In this document: piece by piece, positions 12,471 to 47,210 of the stretch
How positions within the stretch are numbered: the first letter of the stretch is position 1
Layout: the number at the start of each line of letters is the position of its first letter
Source: a virus
Length of the DNA stretch: 64,000 nt
IMG/VR virus record: IMGVR_UViG_3300003322_000128
Location: 1-64,000 of that record
Direction: 5' to 3' (one strand)
Notes under the pieces: generated by a model
What the model saw: the letters and a program-made list of their open reading frames with translations, nothing else
Databases searched by the model: none
Told to the model about the DNA's origin: nothing
Program-made: the position numbers and the translations under genes

Positions 12471-12734
12471 ATGGAAATTCTGTTCTGGGTTTGGGTTATT
12501 CCTGCCGCTGTATTTGCGATTATCCTTTCACTCATGGTGTTTTGCTTTGCTATGATGAATAGTCAGTCTGGTGACCAAGTTGGAGCATTTCTGACTCTTC
12601 TGCTGATTCCTGTTGTTATTGCTGGTTCATCAATTTGGCCGGTTTCCTTCCCGATTGTTTCTTATCTTGGATATCGAGATGAGAAGCGTATTAAGAAGGT
12701 TAATGCTGAATGGCAGGCTAAGCACGGTCTATGA
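12471..12734 (+). CDS. small membrane protein
   Basis: Two TM segments, IWP motif. Confidence 0.7.
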   Translation: MEILFWVWVIPAAVFAIILSLMVFCFAMMNSQSGDQVGAFLTLLLIPVVIAGSSIWPVSFPIVSYLGYRDEKRIKKVNAEWQAKHGL

Positions 12735-35527: not shown

Positions 35528-35782
35528 ATGGCCAGGATTACGAACAACAAGCACGTTATGCACTGGAGCGGCGAGACTGTCACCATTACCCGTCGGTTTC
35601 TCAAGTCGGGCGCCGTGCGCGTTCGTGTTGTTGTGGCTGAATCATTCAATGGTACGGAGCGTTTGAACGAATACCGCGATTACGTTGACATGCACAAGGG
35701 TGATGCTGTATATGCTCGACACATCAAAAAGTTTGAGCGTGCAATTGAGTCAGCCGCTCGCGAAGCTTGGAACGCTCGTTAG
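35528..35782 (+). CDS. hypothetical protein
   Basis: AGGAGG RBS; terminator 35795-35822. Confidence 0.7.
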   Translation: MARITNNKHVMHWSGETVTITRRFLKSGAVRVRVVVAESFNGTERLNEYRDYVDMHKGDAVYARHIKKFERAIESAAREAWNAR

Positions 35783-35849
35783 GCATACCTAACCAGGGAG
35801 CCGGACAACCGGCTCCCTTTTCTATGCCTGCTAAAAGGTTGAATTCTGT

Positions 35850-36134
35850 ACATCCACAGCTGTGGATAAACCTGTGGATAACTTCGCTACTCTCTGCAAT
35901 GTTACTTTACAGTATGTGAGAAAAGCTCTGTACGCCCTTCTAAGAGCCTCCCAGGGATGCCAATAGGCGACCACCCCAGGACACCCGCGAAAGGCCGTTA
36001 GACGCGATTTTCACGTTGTGTAGTATCTGATGGAGTGTCAGAGAACCAACGAAAGCGCAGGTCAGACACTGTTTTTCAATCTGACAGCGTGTCAGGTTAC
36101 CGGCCAGTGGTCACAGACTGCTGACTGTGGATAA
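35850..36134. promoter_or_regulatory. DnaA-box cluster
   Basis: TGTGGATAA at 35861, 35873 and 36126; imperfect opposite-strand ACATCCACA at 35850. Confidence 0.7.
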
Positions 36135-36347
36135 CTTTCTTTACCTAAACGTTACGAAGACACGCCGACATAGGGGTTGACAATCTTTAAAAAATTTGCA
36201 TAGGGGGAAAAGCCGGCCACTTAGGTAAAATTTTGGTAAAGAAAATCAGAAATGGTTGACACAGACTGAGAGTGCCTGTATTTCGCGCACACTCACACAC
36301 TCGCCGCATGTTGGGAGCGGCTAGGTTACTCGCGAGTTAACTAACGA

Positions 36348-36363
36348 TGTGACGCACGTCACA
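36348..36363. promoter_or_regulatory. CRP-type site
   Basis: Perfect TGTGA-N6-TCACA. Confidence 0.55.
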
Positions 36364-36469
36364 CAAATAGCATGGGAAAGGTTAGGCATGCTAAACATGG
36401 CCTCTGACCTGCGAAAACTCACAAAACCGCAGGTCAGAGCATAGGCTAGTGTTTACCTCAGAACGAACG

Positions 36470-36536
36470 GCCCGGAGGAAAGCCCCGCAAGGGGCGAGTA
36501 CAAAGGAAGTCGCGGTTACTTGAGAACTAAATAGCG
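36470..36536 (+). promoter_or_regulatory. rRNA-operon-leader-like antitermination element (boxB hairpin plus boxA)
   Basis: GCCCGGAGGAAAGCCCC-GCAA-GGGGCGAGTACAAAGGAAG...GTTACTTGAGAACTAAATAGCG; matches my recollection of Streptomyces rrn leaders. Confidence 0.7.
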
Positions 36537-36539
36537 GGA

Positions 36540-36870
36540 TTCAGAAACACATTACGCACAAGGAAACTCGCGGGTCACTGCCTAGAGGTCTAGCTAGGAA
36601 ATCACCCCTTACATTCTGCGAGTTGAATTGACATTCTCGGCACTTTGCCAGGATTAGCGAACGGGCGGTTCTTCCCTTTCCGATATGCCAGGAAATATCG
36701 ACCGTCGAATATAGTGCGATTCCTTTTGGGATAGCGGTAGATATCCAATGCCACTAAAGGGATTCAAGTAGCGAAATCCAGCGGGTGTTTTGTTTGTCAG
36801 TCGAAAGTGCGCCGTGTCCCGATTATCTAGGGACTGTGGCTTTAGACGCTTACCCTTTCGAGCGTCTAGT
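36540..36870 (+). ncRNA. candidate large structured leader or ncRNA
   Basis: No credible + strand ORF; nested helices (see findings). Confidence 0.55.
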
Positions 36871-37306
36871 GTCCACAAAGGAATTAGGGAAGAAAGTGAG
36901 TCATCATGACGACTGCCGCTCCTGCCAAGAAGACTGCCGCCCCGCGCAAGCGGGCGACTAAGAAGGCTGTCAGCACTCCTCAGACGGCCGAACAGACGAC
37001 GACTGTGTCTGTTGTTGACCCGGACGTCTACGTGCCCCCTACGGGGCTTGCAGAGGGTTTCCAGAGTGATGGGTCCGGCCCGCTGTTGGATGACCGTCTG
37101 ACTCCGCGTGCGCTGGAGAACCTGACAGAGCTTGCCACGGACGGAAACACGAACACGGCCCGAAAGTACTGGATTGCCGTGCTGGCAAAGTACGGCGTCA
37201 CGGTTCCTTTTGTGCCGGTTGACGAAAGCGAGTAAAACCGCCGCGCAAAACAACTGAATAGCAATTCCCAAACAAACAACCCCCTAATTCCTCTGCGGAC
37301 ACTAGA
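36865..37306. repeat. 25-bp inverted repeats (23/25 match) flanking one gene
   Basis: TCTAGTGTCCACAAAGGAATTAGGG (36865-36889) and CCCTAATTCCTCTGCGGACACTAGA (37282-37306). Confidence 0.85.
36906..37235 (+). CDS. hypothetical protein with histone-like AKKTAAPRK N-terminus
   Basis: First ORF of the putative early block. Confidence 0.7.
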   Translation: MTTAAPAKKTAAPRKRATKKAVSTPQTAEQTTTVSVVDPDVYVPPTGLAEGFQSDGSGPLLDDRLTPRALENLTELATDGNTNTARKYWIAVLAKYGVTVPFVPVDESE

Positions 37307-37322
37307 AACCGGAGGAAAAGTA

Positions 37323-37724
37323 ATGGACGCAATGACCGCAAAGGTTGCTCTCCGCATTCTCAAGAAATTGAAGCAGCGTGAGGCGGAATACTGGGAGGCT
37401 CGCCGCTATTGGTATGAAAGCGGTGATGGACGTCCGTCCGATTGGCGAGTTGACCCGGAAACGGGTCGGCACTGGAATGCAGGCGGTAAGGGTTGGACCT
37501 ATCCGGAATGCATTCATGGCACTTCCCGTTGGACGGATTATGACAACATTTGTGGCGGGTGTGAGGATGGATATTCCATCTATCAACTCGCCATTTGGGA
37601 GGCCCAAGAAAAGGTCGCTCAATTCAAGGAACGTGCCGAATGGGTTGGGGCAATGCCTAGTTCCTTTAGGCACACGGAAATGTATCATGACGTGCTCGAT
37701 TGGGTTTTCGAGACCGTCCGGTAA
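37323..37724 (+). CDS. hypothetical protein
   Basis: GGAGG RBS; CIHG...DYDNICGGCEDG. Confidence 0.75.
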   Translation: MDAMTAKVALRILKKLKQREAEYWEARRYWYESGDGRPSDWRVDPETGRHWNAGGKGWTYPECIHGTSRWTDYDNICGGCEDGYSIYQLAIWEAQEKVAQFKERAEWVGAMPSSFRHTEMYHDVLDWVFETVR

Positions 37725-37798
37725 TTCCAAGCTGTAGGGATTTGGGGGCGTTATCCGAAAGGATGACGTTCCCCATGTCCACACAGAGGGGAAACGCA

Positions 37799-38272
37799 AT
37801 GCAGCACTACAACCCGACCAAACCGCTTACGTTGGACAACTATGCTATTCAGGTTGACTATTACCTGAATGGTGAAAGCGGCGAAAAGTGCGCGCGGTTC
37901 GGTTCGGCAAAGGAATTTGCCGAATGGATGGACTCATTCGACTACAGTTCGGGTGACATTACTGGCTGGACTGGCGACAGTGCGACCATGCAGGCGGTAA
38001 ACAGTTACCGCAATGACAGGCCATACCGCGCAATTCCGGAGTTCATCACGGAATTCAACACGAACGATGGTAGTTCGGAAATCGTTGGGGCAGACCAATT
38101 CCACAATTTGCGTCGCATGTTTACCCGCGACCGCGATAACTACCGCGTTTACCGGCATTACGCCGATGACGCAAAGGTCTACTCGGTAATGTACGTCGGA
38201 AAGGGGGATGCCCGACTTTCTTCCTACGTCTGGCATGTTCCTTTTGGAGCGGATGAAATTCCGATTTCCTGA
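37799..38272 (+). CDS. hypothetical protein
   Basis: GAGGGG RBS. Confidence 0.7.
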   Translation: MQHYNPTKPLTLDNYAIQVDYYLNGESGEKCARFGSAKEFAEWMDSFDYSSGDITGWTGDSATMQAVNSYRNDRPYRAIPEFITEFNTNDGSSEIVGADQFHNLRRMFTRDRDNYRVYRHYADDAKVYSVMYVGKGDARLSSYVWHVPFGADEIPIS

Positions 38273-38396
38273 AAAGGAACGTGCGAGAATGAAAGGGGGT
38301 GGTTTCCTTGCGACGTAGGCGCAAGCGCAAATTACCCGGGTAAAAACCCAAGCTAATTGATTTGGCCCCGGGCATTCTTCGGAATGTTCGGGGAGC

Positions 38397-38834
38397 ATGT
38401 CCATTAGAAGGGTGAAGCAAATGGTGGATGAGTGGCATTACTATTCTGACCAATTCGATGCCCGCGAGACTGGGGAGCATGGTTGGCGGAAATCAAATGT
38501 GAAGCCACGGGAAAGCATCCTGCGTAGGGATTCAACACACCGCGCGGGAAGTCGTTGCGGAAAGCTGTGCGTTGACGGGCTGTGGCCTATTCCTAGGGAA
38601 TTGACGAGTGTCAAGCCTCCCCAGGGTCCGGGCCCATTCGGATTCACTTCCAATGAATTCGCGTGTGCTTGGTATGTGACGCAAAACGGCCGGATTTTCA
38701 AGCTCATTCGCCACCACGGGAACAATCACAATCTCGTGGTGGAAATTGCTTGGCAGATTCATCAGCCGTATTCATGGATTCCGAATTACCCCCGGACGCA
38801 AGTTTGGGATTGGGTCGGAGTTCAGAGCATCTAG
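38397..38834 (+). CDS. hypothetical protein
   Basis: ORF; start may be downstream. Confidence 0.55.
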   Translation: MSIRRVKQMVDEWHYYSDQFDARETGEHGWRKSNVKPRESILRRDSTHRAGSRCGKLCVDGLWPIPRELTSVKPPQGPGPFGFTSNEFACAWYVTQNGRIFKLIRHHGNNHNLVVEIAWQIHQPYSWIPNYPRTQVWDWVGVQSI

Positions 38835-38922
38835 TGACATTTAGTGTGTCAGGGGACGCACAAGCCTTTCCGGTTGTGCTTTCCCCTAATGCATTGAAAG
38901 TCAATGCATGAAAGGGGTCAAA

Positions 38923-39102
38923 ATGCGTACCTGCACCGTGAACGGCCGGACGGGCATCATCACTGCACAGAACGGTAAGAGTGGCGTTCCCGCCACTCAG
39001 GTTTTCGTTCTGTTCGATGACAACCGTCCGACCGAATCGGATGCTGCATGGTTCGACGTGTCCGCCGTTCTGCCCACGGGCATGGTGACTGTCACGTTCT
39101 GA
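38923..39102 (+). CDS. small SH3-like protein
   Basis: AAAGGGG RBS. Confidence 0.6.
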   Translation: MRTCTVNGRTGIITAQNGKSGVPATQVFVLFDDNRPTESDAAWFDVSAVLPTGMVTVTF

Positions 39103-39205
39103 GTGTCTGGGGACCGTTCTAAGCGACTCGGAACGGTCCCCCGGCCCGGTTGTCCAACCAAGCCACGAACGGCCGTTAGAACGGCACAGAGAGGTTTTTT
39201 GTACC

Positions 39206-39430
39206 ATGGCACGTACCAAGTGGGAAATCCTGACTGCCCGACTCGAAAAGGCACGGCAGGAAGTTGCCGAACTGGAAAGCATTATGCGGGGGATGGAAAA
39301 CACCCCGGATAACGTTGCATGCTCCGGTTGCGGTGAACAGTTCCGAGTGAATGCCGATTTCGCGCGGCATTTCAAGATTCCGAATGAGCAATTGCTCAAC
39401 ACGGGATATTGCCCCAACAATCCGCGATAG
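39206..39430 (+). CDS. hypothetical zinc-finger protein
   Basis: CSGC...F.RHF...CP. Confidence 0.65.
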   Translation: MARTKWEILTARLEKARQEVAELESIMRGMENTPDNVACSGCGEQFRVNADFARHFKIPNEQLLNTGYCPNNPR

Positions 39431-39439
39431 GGGCGAGAA

Positions 39440-39685
39440 ATGGAAAACGCGGAAAACTGCAAGGATTGTCGGACTCCTATCACCTTTGCTTATCGCGAAT
39501 GGTGGGATGAGAACGACGACAATACATGTCCCAAGGGTGGAACGCATTTCCCGTATTTCAAGACGGAACTTGCGCCTACTCCGGTTTTTTCGACTTCCGG
39601 GCCGATAGCGAAGAATCGCGAAAAGCGTTTCGTTCCGCTCCGGGCCCAAAGGGCACAAAGAAGGGGTTTGGTTACTGACGCTTAG
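39440..39685 (+). CDS. hypothetical Cys-containing protein
   Basis: CKDC...CP..G.H.P. Confidence 0.6.
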   Translation: MENAENCKDCRTPITFAYREWWDENDDNTCPKGGTHFPYFKTELAPTPVFSTSGPIAKNREKRFVPLRAQRAQRRGLVTDA

Positions 39686-39761
39686 TTGTCTTGGGATTGC
39701 CATTCTTTCGGGAATGGCATTGCCCAAAATGTCTAAGGGTTAGGCATTAGAAGGGGCTGCA

Positions 39762-40094
39762 ATGCTTATTCAGATTCTCGACATTCTCTCTCGCCAGATG
39801 CGGGGTCAGTCACTTACGACTGGTCTTGAAACGGCGCGAGAAATTGAGGCCCTGGTTAGGGAGACTTCCCCTAAGTCTCCCGTTCGTTCGAATCACTCGG
39901 ACGAGATTCCGCTTTCGGTCGATATGATTCGCGCGACTGCATGGGCCGAGCGGGCTTTCAATTCCGATGATTTGACGAATTACAAGATTCGTGCAATCAA
40001 GGAAATCCGCACGAATTGGAATTTGGGCCTTAAGCAGGCTAAGGACATTGCCGATAACGTTTACGGTTCGGCGCCTAAGTCCTATTGGGACTAG
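39762..40094 (+). CDS. protein with a ribosomal bL12 (L7/L12) C-terminal-like domain
   Basis: KIRAIKEIRTNWNLGLKQAKDIAD. Confidence 0.7.
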   Translation: MLIQILDILSRQMRGQSLTTGLETAREIEALVRETSPKSPVRSNHSDEIPLSVDMIRATAWAERAFNSDDLTNYKIRAIKEIRTNWNLGLKQAKDIADNVYGSAPKSYWD

Positions 40095-40186
40095 CTCTCT
40101 GCGCTTTATGGTGGTGGCCATTTCGGGCGGGTTTTGAAATGGCCATTCGCCAAATGCGTTAAGGGTTAACGCAGGAAAGGGAATCA

Positions 40187-40549
40187 ATGCGTACGGAAAT
40201 GGTTCACCTCACCAATGCGTTTGTCCGTTACTGCGCTTCCGCTCGGAAGCTTGGTTACGACACTACGGGTTGGGGGCTTACGGTCGGTTCTAAGACCCAA
40301 GGGAACCCCTACAAGGTTGGGGTGAAGGGTGAATGCGGTAAGAGTCTTCCTGGCATGGGAGATGGAGATATCGGCCGGACCCGTGGCGAGGCTTACGACA
40401 GGTTGGTTACCGCCGCGAACGTGCTTGACGACGTGTGCAAGCATCTTTACGGATGTTCCGGAGACGGCTATGCGAGTGAAATGCCGCATGACACTTTCGT
40501 TCGGGAATCTCTGCACGTTTCCGGATTTCATCAGTACTGCAATAACTGA
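40187..40549 (+). CDS. hypothetical protein
   Basis: GAAAGG RBS. Confidence 0.65.
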   Translation: MRTEMVHLTNAFVRYCASARKLGYDTTGWGLTVGSKTQGNPYKVGVKGECGKSLPGMGDGDIGRTRGEAYDRLVTAANVLDDVCKHLYGCSGDGYASEMPHDTFVRESLHVSGFHQYCNN

Positions 40550-40568
40550 ATAGAAAGGAAAAGACATC

Positions 40569-40760
40569 ATGCGAATTCAGCCGCGCCAAAGTGTTCAGAC
40601 TACTTGGAATCGAGCTATCAACGATTCGTTTTTCCGGTTTGAGCATTACGTTATTCCGGGCAAGGAATCCGCCACTTACGTTTATCGGCGGGTTTTCGAT
40701 TCGTGGACTCCCGATGGACGTTGGGAGCTGGAAAAGCTCATTCGGCTCTATGCTGAATAG
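40569..40760 (+). CDS. hypothetical protein
   Basis: GAAAGGA RBS. Confidence 0.6.
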   Translation: MRIQPRQSVQTTWNRAINDSFFRFEHYVIPGKESATYVYRRVFDSWTPDGRWELEKLIRLYAE

Positions 40761-40974
40761 CTGAATGTCCGGGGCACAATGTGTCCCGTGGCATTGTCTA
40801 TTCAGAGTGAGTAGGCAGGAAAGGGCATCATGCGGAAGATTCTTGGTGACATTGCGCTTACGGTCGTTGTCTTTGTGGGCGTTACTGTTGTCTGGAATTG
40901 GCTTTTCTGAGTAGCTGAATGCGGCGGGTATGCCTTTATGGATATCCGTTCGCATTGTCTACTTAGGAGGAGCA

Positions 40975-41130
40975 ATGCGGGAAGTTGCCAGTATCTATCT
41001 TTCCAGCAATGGAAAGGAATTCCTGATTTATGACAGAAACGAGCAATTGGTTTCTGTCAAGGCAATTAGCGACCTTGCCGATTTGGGAGAGACGGTTGTC
41101 AATACTGTCTCGGAAGCTATTGAGGAGTAG
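40975..41130 (+). CDS. hypothetical protein
   Basis: AGGAGG RBS. Confidence 0.55.
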   Translation: MREVASIYLSSNGKEFLIYDRNEQLVSVKAISDLADLGETVVNTVSEAIEE

Positions 41131-41132
41131 AA

Positions 41133-41471
41133 ATGCCCTACGGAACGATTTCGCCGGAAGTCAAGAATTTCGTCGAAATGCGTGCAAGGCAGGGGAACGT
41201 TTTCGGGCGCTTCGAACTTGAGCCGCAAACGTGTGAATTTCCCGATGACTGCGAAAAGGCGGAAAACTGCATCTGCTTTGTTCCGGGCCTTTCGCGAATC
41301 TCCATTATCGTCGAAGGTGCCCTAGACGAAGAATTCGAAATCCGGGGTGGCGGCTTTGAGGTCAACATTGCCGACTGGATTTCAGAATTCATGTTCTGTG
41401 AGAACGTCGGCAATTACTGGATTATGGTTTCCGACAGTGAGGGAAACCTGACTTACTCGGTAGAGGGGTGA
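41133..41471 (+). CDS. hypothetical protein
   Basis: GAGGAG RBS. Confidence 0.65.
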   Translation: MPYGTISPEVKNFVEMRARQGNVFGRFELEPQTCEFPDDCEKAENCICFVPGLSRISIIVEGALDEEFEIRGGGFEVNIADWISEFMFCENVGNYWIMVSDSEGNLTYSVEG

Positions 41472-41477
41472 CCAGCA

Positions 41478-41837
41478 ATGGCATGGGTTGAATTCACGCC
41501 GGGTGTTCCGGACATTGTCCGCGAATACCAAAGCAAGGTTGAGGACACAGAAAATGGAATCACCCTTTATGAAAACATCGGGTTGATTTCGGCAATTCGA
41601 AAGTCCGGGGACCGCTACTGGATTTACGAAACGGATTTCCGGGAAATGCTGGAAATTGACGTCACGGAATTGCAGCCGGGTGATGTTATCTGGCATTGCT
41701 TGGATGACGGCCCGGTTAAGAGTCACGAACCGTATTCGTCATATCCGACTGAGGAATTGGTTTCTTTTCGGTCTGGCACAGCTGAACGGTTCGGCAAGCC
41801 GCAAAAGTTGGGTGTTTTGAGGGGTGGGCAGTTTTAG
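41478..41837 (+). CDS. hypothetical protein
   Basis: GAGGGG RBS. Confidence 0.65.
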   Translation: MAWVEFTPGVPDIVREYQSKVEDTENGITLYENIGLISAIRKSGDRYWIYETDFREMLEIDVTELQPGDVIWHCLDDGPVKSHEPYSSYPTEELVSFRSGTAERFGKPQKLGVLRGGQF

Positions 41838-41937
41838 GCAGTAGATTGGTACATAGCTTGCTACAAAAAGGGGCTGTGTGCCTTTCTAGGGCCCCGGACA
41901 ATCGAGCCGGGGTCATTGCCTAGGGGAGGTCCTGAAA

Positions 41938-42294
41938 ATGGCTTACAGCGCAACTGAGTGCAAGGGTGACGGCATGGGGGACTACGGGCGTCCCTGCAAC
42001 GGATACGCGCGTACCGAATCGCCGTGTGCGGTATGCCTGCTGGCACACAAGCTCTATTCCACTGAAGAGAATTCGGCCGGGTTTGTTGAGGTAGAAGAGA
42101 CAGATAACTTCCCCATTACAGTAATTGCCTATAGAGGAATAAACACAGTAACAGTGAAGGGTATTCGCTGTGACTCAATCAGTACTCAGGTAGACAAGCG
42201 GGGCAATGCCCATCTGTCCTTTGAGTTCTACGAGAATGCAAACCGAATCGGTTACATTCCTTGCGTCGATTGGTACGAGACGGTATGCGAGTAA
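41938..42294 (+). CDS. hypothetical protein
   Basis: GGAGG RBS. Confidence 0.6.
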   Translation: MAYSATECKGDGMGDYGRPCNGYARTESPCAVCLLAHKLYSTEENSAGFVEVEETDNFPITVIAYRGINTVTVKGIRCDSISTQVDKRGNAHLSFEFYENANRIGYIPCVDWYETVCE

Positions 42295-42683
42295 AGGTAT
42301 GCAGGAAGTGTGCCCATGACATACCCCATCCTTTGGCACATTGGCATGTGTGGTGCCGTTACTGCCATAGGGTAAGGGTATTCAGGGGACCTAGCTGTAA
42401 GGTCTGTTACAGGAAGGCTAGGGCCCTTGTAGCAGACCTGTTCAAATAGGAACTACCCACTATCTTTTGGAAAGCACTAACTAAAAGTTAGTGTAAATGT
42501 AGGGTATTTGTGCGGCTATCTAGGCGCAATTAAGCCGCATTTCTGCCTGAATTCGGGCAAAAACAAGGGAAAAAGCATGTATTCGCTTGCATTTCTTGCA
42601 ATTACGGCCCTTTTCCTGATTGCCGCCTACTTTGCCGGGGTATTGCCGGGCGGTATTCAGTAGATACAGAAAGGTAAATACAC

Positions 42684-42971
42684 ATGCCTATTGCTATTCA
42701 GTATATGGATAGGCCCAATTCTCCTAATGGTGCATACTATGGGGGGTATTGTGTGAATGATGGTAGCAATACCGTATTCATAGAAACCCGGGCTGCAAAT
42801 AATCTCTTGCCTGTATATGCATGGCTAGGTAATGGAGATAGGGCTATTGGCAGGGAGGTCTATAAGACAGCTCTAGTTATGCCTAGCGTTACTCTCAATG
42901 CCAAGCAGTACAATACCTTGGTATGTTCTATTCCTACTCATGAGCAGAGGGCATATAGCAAAGGAGATTGA
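42684..42971 (+). CDS. hypothetical protein
   Basis: GAAAGG RBS. Confidence 0.55.
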   Translation: MPIAIQYMDRPNSPNGAYYGGYCVNDGSNTVFIETRAANNLLPVYAWLGNGDRAIGREVYKTALVMPSVTLNAKQYNTLVCSIPTHEQRAYSKGD

Positions 42972-43373
42972 GACAGAAATTCCCCCGAATTCTCCTGAAA
43001 TCAATAGGGGAAAGGCAATTGCAGCTAGTTCTATAACTGTAGTTGTGGGAAGTGGCTTTTCTGCCTTGGTCATCATTGCAGTCTCGTTTATCCTGGTCAC
43101 AATTCTTTGTGTCCTATGGGGCGTAGGGATTGCTATTTCGGCAGTATAGGAATTCTTTAGTGGGACCCCCGAGATAATTTCAAATGGGTCCCCCGAATTC
43201 TTTTTGAATTCAATATGCATTTGCTTTTATGGGCGCACTAATTGCAAGTGCGAATTCTATTTGCCGGCCTATATCATACATCTACAAAATTTTTTAACAT
43301 TTTGAATCTGGAAATTAGGTTACTTTGAGTTGATTGTAGCTAACTGAGAGTAATGGTCTGTAAACATAGAAAA

Positions 43374-43401
43374 TCCCCACACCCTTTTTGGGTGTGGGGA
43401 A
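43374..43401. terminator. hairpin or terminator at the convergence of the + and - blocks
   Basis: TCCCCACACCC-TTTTT-GGGTGTGGGGA. Confidence 0.6.
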
Positions 43402-46937: not shown

Positions 46938-47010
46938 AGCCTAGTGTGAGAATCGAACTCACGACCTCTTCCGTACCAAGGAAGCGTTCTTCCACTGCAA
47001 CTAACTAGGC
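46938..47010 (-). tRNA. tRNA-Thr(GGU)
   Basis: GCCTAGT/ACTAGGC acceptor, TT-GGT-AC loop, GTTCGATT T arm. Confidence 0.88.
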
Positions 47011-47061
47011 AAGTATAAGCTTGCCGGTATCAAGAAAGGAGAATAAAAAGATACCGACCAG

Positions 47062-47133
47062 AGCCAAATAACGGATTCGAACCGTTTTCTCATCTTTACG
47101 AGAGATGCGTTTTTCCTATTAAACTAAGCTGGC
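47062..47133 (-). tRNA. tRNA-Thr(CGU)
   Basis: GCCAGCT/ATTTGGC acceptor, CT-CGT-AA loop, GTTCGAAT T arm. Confidence 0.85.
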
Positions 47134-47138
47134 AAGAG

Positions 47139-47210
47139 AGCCGCCTGGGGATTCCGAGACCCCGACCTGTGCTTTACAAGAGCACTGCTCTGCCTCTGAG
47201 CTAAGGCGGC
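47139..47210 (-). tRNA. tRNA-Thr(UGU), atypical T arm
   Basis: GCCGCCT/AGGCGGC acceptor, CT-TGT-AA loop; T arm GGGGT-CTCGGAA-TCCCC. Confidence 0.8.

Follow-up and report, generated by a model that had tools for sequence, protein, structure and literature searches.

A copy of the Streptomyces rRNA-operon leader at the head of a phage operon as a candidate antitermination signal for host factors

The N/nut system of lambda is the textbook example of how a phage captures the Nus factors of its host, and it needs a phage protein: boxA stands before boxB, boxA is sub-optimal, and N protein bound to boxB is required. The layout of the rRNA-operon (rrn) leader works in E. coli without any phage protein, and the rrn-type complexes of E. 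coli act mainly against Rho. The put element of HK022 is a cis-acting RNA that also brings about antitermination without a phage protein, its two stem-loops acting on RNA polymerase with no Nus factors. The early operon of T7, which host polymerase transcribes, has RNase III hairpins between its cistrons. Nucleation of the rrn antitermination complex via NusB-S10 and NusG requires boxA and nothing more than boxA, and this complex blocks Rho (PMC13753749). BoxA is active outside rrn operons too (PMC5725501), as in the suhB 5' UTR of E. coli and Salmonella and in CRISPR arrays, where it controls or protects the transcription of RNA that is not covered by ribosomes (PMC5725501, PMC13753749). For actinobacteria, the CL2 motif has been taken as boxA (PMC10218544), and specific binding of boxC by M. 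tuberculosis NusA through its KH domains is stated in a passage of PMC2724277 that cites Arnvig 2004 and Beuth 2005. Phage DNA is known to be silenced by Rho (PMC3526286).

In a window of 64,000 nt (the whole stretch of DNA that was analysed, positions 1 to 64,000 of IMG/VR record IMGVR_UViG_3300003322_000128), we examined an element that has the same order of parts as the actinobacterial rrn leader, such as the nut-like site of M. tuberculosis, and likewise stands shortly after a putative promoter. It is 81% identical to the Streptomyces rrn leader over 67-77 nt, with GNRA hairpin, boxA and boxC kept. The host leader precedes rRNA and forms the 16S leader-trailer helix, whereas the phage copy precedes a non-coding RNA and protein-coding genes, lacks the helix-forming part and has no trailer complement. 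As with lambda nutL/nutR and N, a phage boxA RNA signal is predicted here to recruit Nus factors for a long early operon; in lambda nut, however, boxA lies upstream of boxB, whereas the phage element follows the order of rrn leaders, hairpin first and boxA second. Pfam and PHROGs brought up no N-like gene and no informative match for ten downstream ORFs, although these ORFans could still include an N-like gene. The suhB and CRISPR signals share with the element a boxA in an untranslated leader outside rrn, but they are chromosomal and consist of boxA alone, whereas the phage has the whole hairpin-boxA-boxC unit copied from the host. HK022 put has no likeness to rrn leaders, the very likeness that defines the phage element, and the T7 cistron hairpins resemble the gene-1 helix and intergenic hairpins described below, but T7 has no copy of a host rrn leader. 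A full-text literature search found no report of rrn-leader copies in phages, and promoters or rRNA are not mentioned in the genome announcements for the phage group. Antitermination by boxA of the rrn/nut type is known; direct mimicry of the host leader by a phage appears, from sequence comparison, to be new.

Homology, selection, covariation, genomic placement and recurrence in unrelated phages are the observed part of the case. We consider it probable, at roughly 0.6, that the phage carries in this element a working copy of the antitermination part of the Streptomyces rrn leader, on which host factors would be loaded in cis. The positions of the features are listed in Table 1.

Table 1. Positions of the leader element and of the features around it in the 64,000-nt window
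Feature	Position	Strand	Remarks
Terminator-like intrinsic hairpin	35795-35818	+	10-bp stem, T-rich tail; closes upstream gene block
Perfect 12-bp inverted repeat CTCTGACCTGCG / CGCAGGTCAGAG	36402-36439	.	14-nt spacer; covers the -35 position; also in Wakanda
-10-like hexamer TAGTGT	36447-36452	+	In relatives TAGAGT, TACAGT or TAGTGT at the same relative position; no good -35
Copy of host rrn leader	36460-36536	+	81% identity to leaders; 59.6 bits with the host-only covariance model
BoxB-like hairpin GCCCC-GCAA-GGGGC	36482-36495	+	GNRA loop; position conserved, arm sequences differ and co-vary (phages and hosts)
BoxA-like 13-mer GGUUACUUGAGAA	36514-36526	+	Host CGUUCCUUGAGAA; 11/13 bases identical
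BoxC-like stretch GAACUAAAUAGCG	36524-36536	+	Part of core TTGAGAACT-N-AA-N-AG-(T)G
Conserved structured non-coding RNA, about 257 nt	36555-36811	+	Closing helix 36555-36559/36807-36811; no Rfam match
Long helix inside the structured RNA, plus inner hairpins	36627-36658/36771-36801	+	
Two more conserved hairpins	36816-36877	+	Before the gene 1 ribosome-binding site
Left arm of 25-nt long-range helix	36865-36889	+	Helix loops out gene 1
Right arm of 25-nt long-range helix	37282-37306	+	92% complementary
First ORF of putative operon (gene 1)	36906-37235	+	109 aa, no known family
Rest of putative operon	37323-43100	+	About 15 small ORFs, nearly all without family
Strong bidirectional terminator-like hairpin	43374-43400	.	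11-bp stem; next strong one after 36.9 kb

The window comes from a 98.8-kb viral record with a completeness of about 77%, assembled from a root metagenome. It has a G+C content of 43-53% and many tRNA genes, and the phages with which it aligned, at 77-92% identity, are Streptomyces siphoviruses that are lytic and about 130 kb in size, namely Faust, TunaTartare, Sham, Kenrey, Gilson, and Annadreamy (Stanwilliamsviridae, Loccivirinae; SEA-PHAGES cluster BE type). The Faust record terminates in a 772-bp direct terminal repeat, and the equivalent lies inside the window at about 42.5-43.3 kb, indicating that the contig passes through the conventional (physical) genome ends. The leader element lies about 6 kb before the right terminus and is oriented toward it. 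Terminal repeats of about 11 kb have been reported for BE1 relatives (PMC5764925). A real rrn operon or host contamination was considered and rejected: 16S was found downstream in 0 of 35 viral loci, and phage genomes align with the window on either side of the element. Rfam models run over the whole window detected tRNAs only, and no rRNA gene is present in it, so that the statement of the preliminary description that no rRNA gene follows was correct as regards rRNA; what comes next, however, is a conserved structured non-coding RNA of about 257 nt.

The preliminary description, made from the letters of the window, had likened positions 36470-36536 to a Streptomyces rrn leader. The quoted letters were present exactly as claimed, and the TAGTGT said to lie upstream was found 17 nt 5' of 36470. 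A search pattern was composed from the phage letters only (GAGTACAAAGGAAG N5-15 TTGAGAACT), for which about 0.2 matches are expected by chance in 596 Gb. At least 120 genomes were matched; among the matches listed, all were Streptomyces, most of them at contig ends, and the 16S 27F site was located 160-208 nt downstream in all 46 loci that were long enough. The consensus of these host loci agreed nearly letter for letter with the leader given in the preliminary description. BLAST of positions 36460-36540 against five complete Streptomyces genomes gave 6-7 matches in each, at 81% identity and with E-values down to 8e-12. In the two genomes checked with a 16S model, a 16S gene lay 188-196 nt downstream of the end of every match (7/7 and 6/6), with no match away from 16S genes; the BLAST check proposed beforehand, in which hits upstream of 16S genes were to support the claim, thus came out in its favour in 13 of 13 cases.

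A covariance model was built from 19 host leaders alone, with the phage copies left out. It gave the window element 59.6 bits (E ~5e-12), and AT-rich chance matches to the search pattern received no score. The full leader type was present in 7 of 151 genomes sampled evenly across the class, all seven being 6-10 Mb in size, a distribution that makes the full leader type, and with it the phage copy, specific to the host lineage. At the level of sequence, these comparisons confirmed the phage element as a true homologue of the host rrn leader, comprising hairpin, boxA and boxC.

The phage copy has retained the purine block of the leader together with the boxB-like GNRA hairpin, AGUACAAAGGAAG and boxA/boxC; TTGAGAAC is likewise a stretch of the element. 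The hairpin lies between the CCGGAGGAAA and AGUACAAAGG blocks, at a conserved position, and is present in every host and phage version; CCGGAGGAAA is kept on its 5' side and GAGUACAAAGGAAG after it, followed by a short spacer and then boxA. Preservation of the GNRA hairpin, as had been claimed, was evident from the comparison of GCCCC-GCAA-GGGGC in the phage with GCCC-GAGA-GGGU in the host. The boxC-like GAACUAAAUAG overlaps boxA and agrees with the host boxC core. Homology to the host ends right after ...AGCG, where the host 16S processing-stem sequence begins. The host leader runs on into a stretch whose pairing partner is the spacer downstream of 16S, and boxA/boxC lie inside the leader-trailer helix, whereas this 16S-pairing continuation is absent from the phage copy.

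No trailer complementary to the phage boxA was found above shuffled background, the best duplex (-20.3 kcal/mol) being weaker than those of 9 of 10 shuffled leaders. Helix formation is therefore ruled out as an explanation for the conservation of the near-invariant core, and this conservation without a partner points to recognition as single-stranded RNA, presumably by factor binding. Minimum free energy folding of the whole element was no better than that of shuffles (z = -0.25), and the local hairpin alone was supported. A core that needs no pairing partner would also suit a decoy, an abundant boxA/boxC RNA that would titrate NusB, S10 and NusA off the host rrn operons and so aid the shutdown of host ribosome synthesis; in E. 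coli, boxA RNA competes for Nus factors in a transcription-dependent manner (Friedman et al. 1990, as cited in a passage of PMC2724277). Such a role is very unlikely, however, given that the element is a single copy per genome, with no further copy in the window or in the 98.8-kb record, that it is always in sense orientation at the 5' end of a long operon, as is required of a cis signal but not of a decoy, and that the phages rely on host ribosomes and carry many tRNAs.

In eleven relatives, the element was found at the same place, within a gene-free gap of 0.9-1.8 kb. It is conserved throughout the subfamily Loccivirinae with compensatory changes in the hairpin, and it is retained in Faustvirus, Gilsonvirus, and Annadreamyvirus although the flanks have been replaced or cannot be aligned. 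The variants of the hairpin arms were GCCCC/GGGGC, GGCCC/GGGCC, GGGGG/CCCCC, and GGCGGG/CCCGCU. In a model-guided alignment of 28 phage copies, which is thus fitted to the model, 96% of the hairpin cells were paired and 11 cells were doubly changed versus 3.2 in shuffles (0/500 reached 11), and the covariation score was 0.245 versus at most 0.054 in slid controls. Across phage groups, constraint was strongest on the core TTGAGAACT-N-AA-N-AG-(T)G, with a conservation of at least 90% in all phage copies; CAAAGG and GCCCGGAGGAA came next. In copies of the Faust, Sham and Blueeyedbeauty type, the 5' half of boxA, which in E. coli defines NusB/NusE recognition, was diverged, and these copies scored only 22-40 bits with the host-only model. 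The Wakanda core had two substitutions (TTGTTAAC) and gave no covariance-model match, which suggests either that the full signal is dispensable in some lineages or that the back half is the part that matters. The retention of the element between changed flanks and the compensatory changes in its hairpin indicate that it is under selection in the phages. In Beuffert (L133), an annotated CDS of 64 aa (gene 259, 1382-1576) overlaps the leader element and is probably a spurious gene call.

The element was also detected in R4-like phages of about 51 kb (Arquatrovirinae, Likavirus), including Lannister, Zemlya, Goby, Danzina, Lika, Sujidade, and others. Their copies are on the minus strand, 630-707 nt from the right end, directly after a perfect TTGACA-17-TAGAGT promoter; the first gene follows after 90-120 nt, in a leftward operon with an Ocr-like anti-restriction gene among its members. 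A scan of IMG/VR revealed at least eight further groups of viral contigs that carry the element with no 16S downstream (L135; L137/L142/L154/L161; L150/L157; Immanuel3 and FlowerPower-type 46-kb phages; L141/L159, L148, L151, L165, L169). The element is the only thing that L142 has in common with cultured phages, and the L142 version matches 70 Streptomyces phage records. In the R4-like phages and several of the uncultured viral groups, its place is invariably the start of an operon, after a -10-like box. Host DNA does get picked up by phages and the element is not long, as would be expected of a neutral remnant of accidentally captured host sequence, but such a remnant is hardly credible here: compensatory changes accompany the conservation of the element over the entire subfamily, it is precisely bounded and constantly placed, and it has been retained or independently acquired in unrelated phage groups.

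Upstream of the element, the terminator-like hairpin at the end of the preceding gene block makes the module an independent transcription unit. The preliminary description inferred that the phage disguises its early operon, with a transcript that appears to begin with the leader copy just downstream of the TAGTGT box, as an rRNA operon and so gains antitermination without an N-like protein. That view stands insofar as a true rrn-leader homologue, which is under selection, lies behind a -10-like box and heads a long, promoter-poor operon, and the likeness to an rRNA operon extends beyond what was described there, to the structured RNA and the long-range helix downstream; the start at TAGTGT does not have the same standing, as a consensus sigma-70 scan of 35600-37300 returned no promoter. 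The inverted repeat over the -35 position may act as an operator, or else form a U-less terminator hairpin. A third near-copy of the 12-bp repeat, CGCAGGTCAGAC, is located at 36056-36067, 350 nt upstream. An exact 13-nt direct repeat, CTGTGGATAACTT, occurs at 35872-35884 and 36125-36137, within the conserved stretch without genes that precedes the promoter, and carries the DnaA-box-like TTATCCACA on the other strand.

At least three unrelated types of promoter region were found upstream of the element among the relatives: Gilson, Kenrey, Forrest, Faust, and Beuffert have a host-like CTGATAGAGTCGGAGACGCA type, of which Blueeyedbeauty and Annadreamy show a TACAGT variant; Sham and TunaTartare share a GGATAGTTC type; and the window phage and Wakanda have the inverted repeat with TAGTGT. 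The window sequence TAGTGTTT was also considered as a variant of the host rrn promoter and was rejected, as BLAST of 36200-36469 against more than 120 host loci gave 0 matches. In the Gilson-type relatives, 33 nt of the host proximal promoter (-10/+1 region) are present at 94% identity (E 5.6e-8), as would be seen if the leader had been captured with the strong rrn promoter and kept only as part of a promoter module (initial transcribed region, growth-rate control) with no role in elongation. We regard this as quite unlikely, since the window phage, Wakanda, Sham and Likavirus keep the leader although their promoter does not come from the host, conservation is highest in the distal boxA/boxC, 60-75 nt past the -10, and the hairpin covariation argues for a function at the RNA level. 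Promoter carry-over, decoy and neutral remnant fit less well than antitermination because of the placement, the single copy and the covariation.

Behind boxA, about 370 nt contain no credible ORF. In the alignment of 11 phages, this region folded into a multibranched structure of 69 pairs, 28 of which were changed on both sides; 95.2% of the cells were paired versus 32-42% in slid controls, and 0 of 500 shuffles reached the observed values. Rfam 15 gave no match in 35700-37100, either at the gathering thresholds or at E <= 1. The 25-nt helix encloses exactly the first ORF, was found in all 10 relatives that were tested, and shows covariation in Gilson, Kenrey, and Forrest; by analogy, it resembles the processing stalks of rRNA. 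In public RNA-seq data (2 runs of one plant-metagenome study), contigs on 36000-38000 were found only at 36496-36638, 36655-36804, and 36516-36814; with about 99% identity, a depth of about 2 and possible DNA carry-over, they establish neither transcription nor RNA ends.

The putative operon comprises about 16 small ORFs in about 6.5 kb and runs toward the genome terminus, and no plus-strand consensus promoter was found from 36.9 to 43.1 kb. Its 110-aa ORF at 39762-40091 (+) showed a sub-threshold similarity to the L7/L12 C-terminal domain (24.3 bits versus a cut-off of 25.9). In the BE1 phage Riptide, genes 258 and 259, which have a similar gene number, are annotated as L7/L12 C-terminal domain (PMC12509530). 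The hairpin at 43374-43400 is likely the end of the transcription unit. It separates the rightward operon from a leftward block with three tRNA genes (46938-47210).

The closest rival to antitermination is the production of RNA itself, in which the rrn complex would serve mainly as a chaperone and processing scaffold, the RNA of about 257 nt would be folded and cut out like 16S, and the mRNA would be matured at the gene-1 helix. A covariation-supported structured RNA stands directly behind boxA, gene 1 is looped out by a 25-bp helix that is conserved and co-varies, the host leader likewise precedes a structured RNA flanked by the leader-trailer helix, and the rrn complex has been described as an RNA chaperone (PMC8632103, PMC10250234). 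In Likavirus, however, only 90-120 nt separate boxA from the first gene and there is no large RNA, so that this cannot be the general role of the element; the proposal moreover overlaps with antitermination and does not exclude it. As a replacement for antitermination, we judge it unlikely. A more far-reaching possibility, which we entertain tentatively, is a complete pseudo-rRNA operon: the rrn complex would make, fold and release a stable phage RNA of about 260-350 nt as it does 16S, rRNA-style helices would excise the downstream cistrons, one of which would be L7/L12-C-terminal-like, and the RNA itself would act on host translation or ribosome biogenesis. Placing an rrn-leader copy behind the first promoter would then be a general actinobacteriophage strategy that is so far undescribed.

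For the antitermination reading, we infer a start site, factor binding, antitermination, and early timing, the last from the host-type promoter boxes and the Likavirus context and from nothing else. Host RNA polymerase would initiate a few bases past the -10-like box, at about 36459, and the nascent RNA would present the boxB-like hairpin and then single-stranded boxA/boxC. BoxA would be bound by NusB-NusE(S10) and the boxC stretch by NusA; joined by NusG and perhaps by S4 and a SuhB-like factor, they would convert the polymerase into a termination-resistant complex of the rrn type. This complex would cross the untranslated structured RNA of about 370 nt and then the operon of about 6.5 kb with its hairpin-separated small genes, a region in which Rho termination would be expected without it. 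A phage N-like protein would not be needed. Such a cargo, a long untranslated structured RNA and 6.5 kb without a plus-strand consensus promoter, suits an antitermination mechanism. Points against this reading are the poor -35, the lack of host likeness in the promoter region of the window, the diverged 5' half of boxA in several relatives and the altered core of Wakanda, along with the mainly Rho-directed action of rrn-type complexes in E. coli.

The result that lambda obtains with N/nut thus appears, as far as the sequences tell, to be gained here by copying the host rRNA leader, with no phage protein required, and likewise in unrelated Streptomyces phages and possibly in other actinophages. 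If confirmed, this would be a protein-independent and host-specific antitermination strategy. The element could then be a natural tool for studying the actinobacterial rrn antitermination complex, which has received little attention, and for learning which half of boxA/boxC matters; its sequence could mark the first operons of actinophages and help to predict hosts, and it could be a compact part for Rho-resistant expression in Streptomyces engineering.

Some Immanuel3-type Streptomyces phages of 45-46 kb have two tandem leader-like elements about 400 nt apart near the genome end (L163:12149-12212 and 12554-12625; also L155 and L151), and in the Immanuel3 record its 1.4-kb end is present twice. 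Exact matches to the boxA/boxC core, 20-23 nt long and with a weak E-value of 0.4, were found near the genome ends of Mycobacterium phage Estes (NC_053514.1, 82309-82328) and Nocardia phage P3.1 (MW582532.1, 2991-3013).
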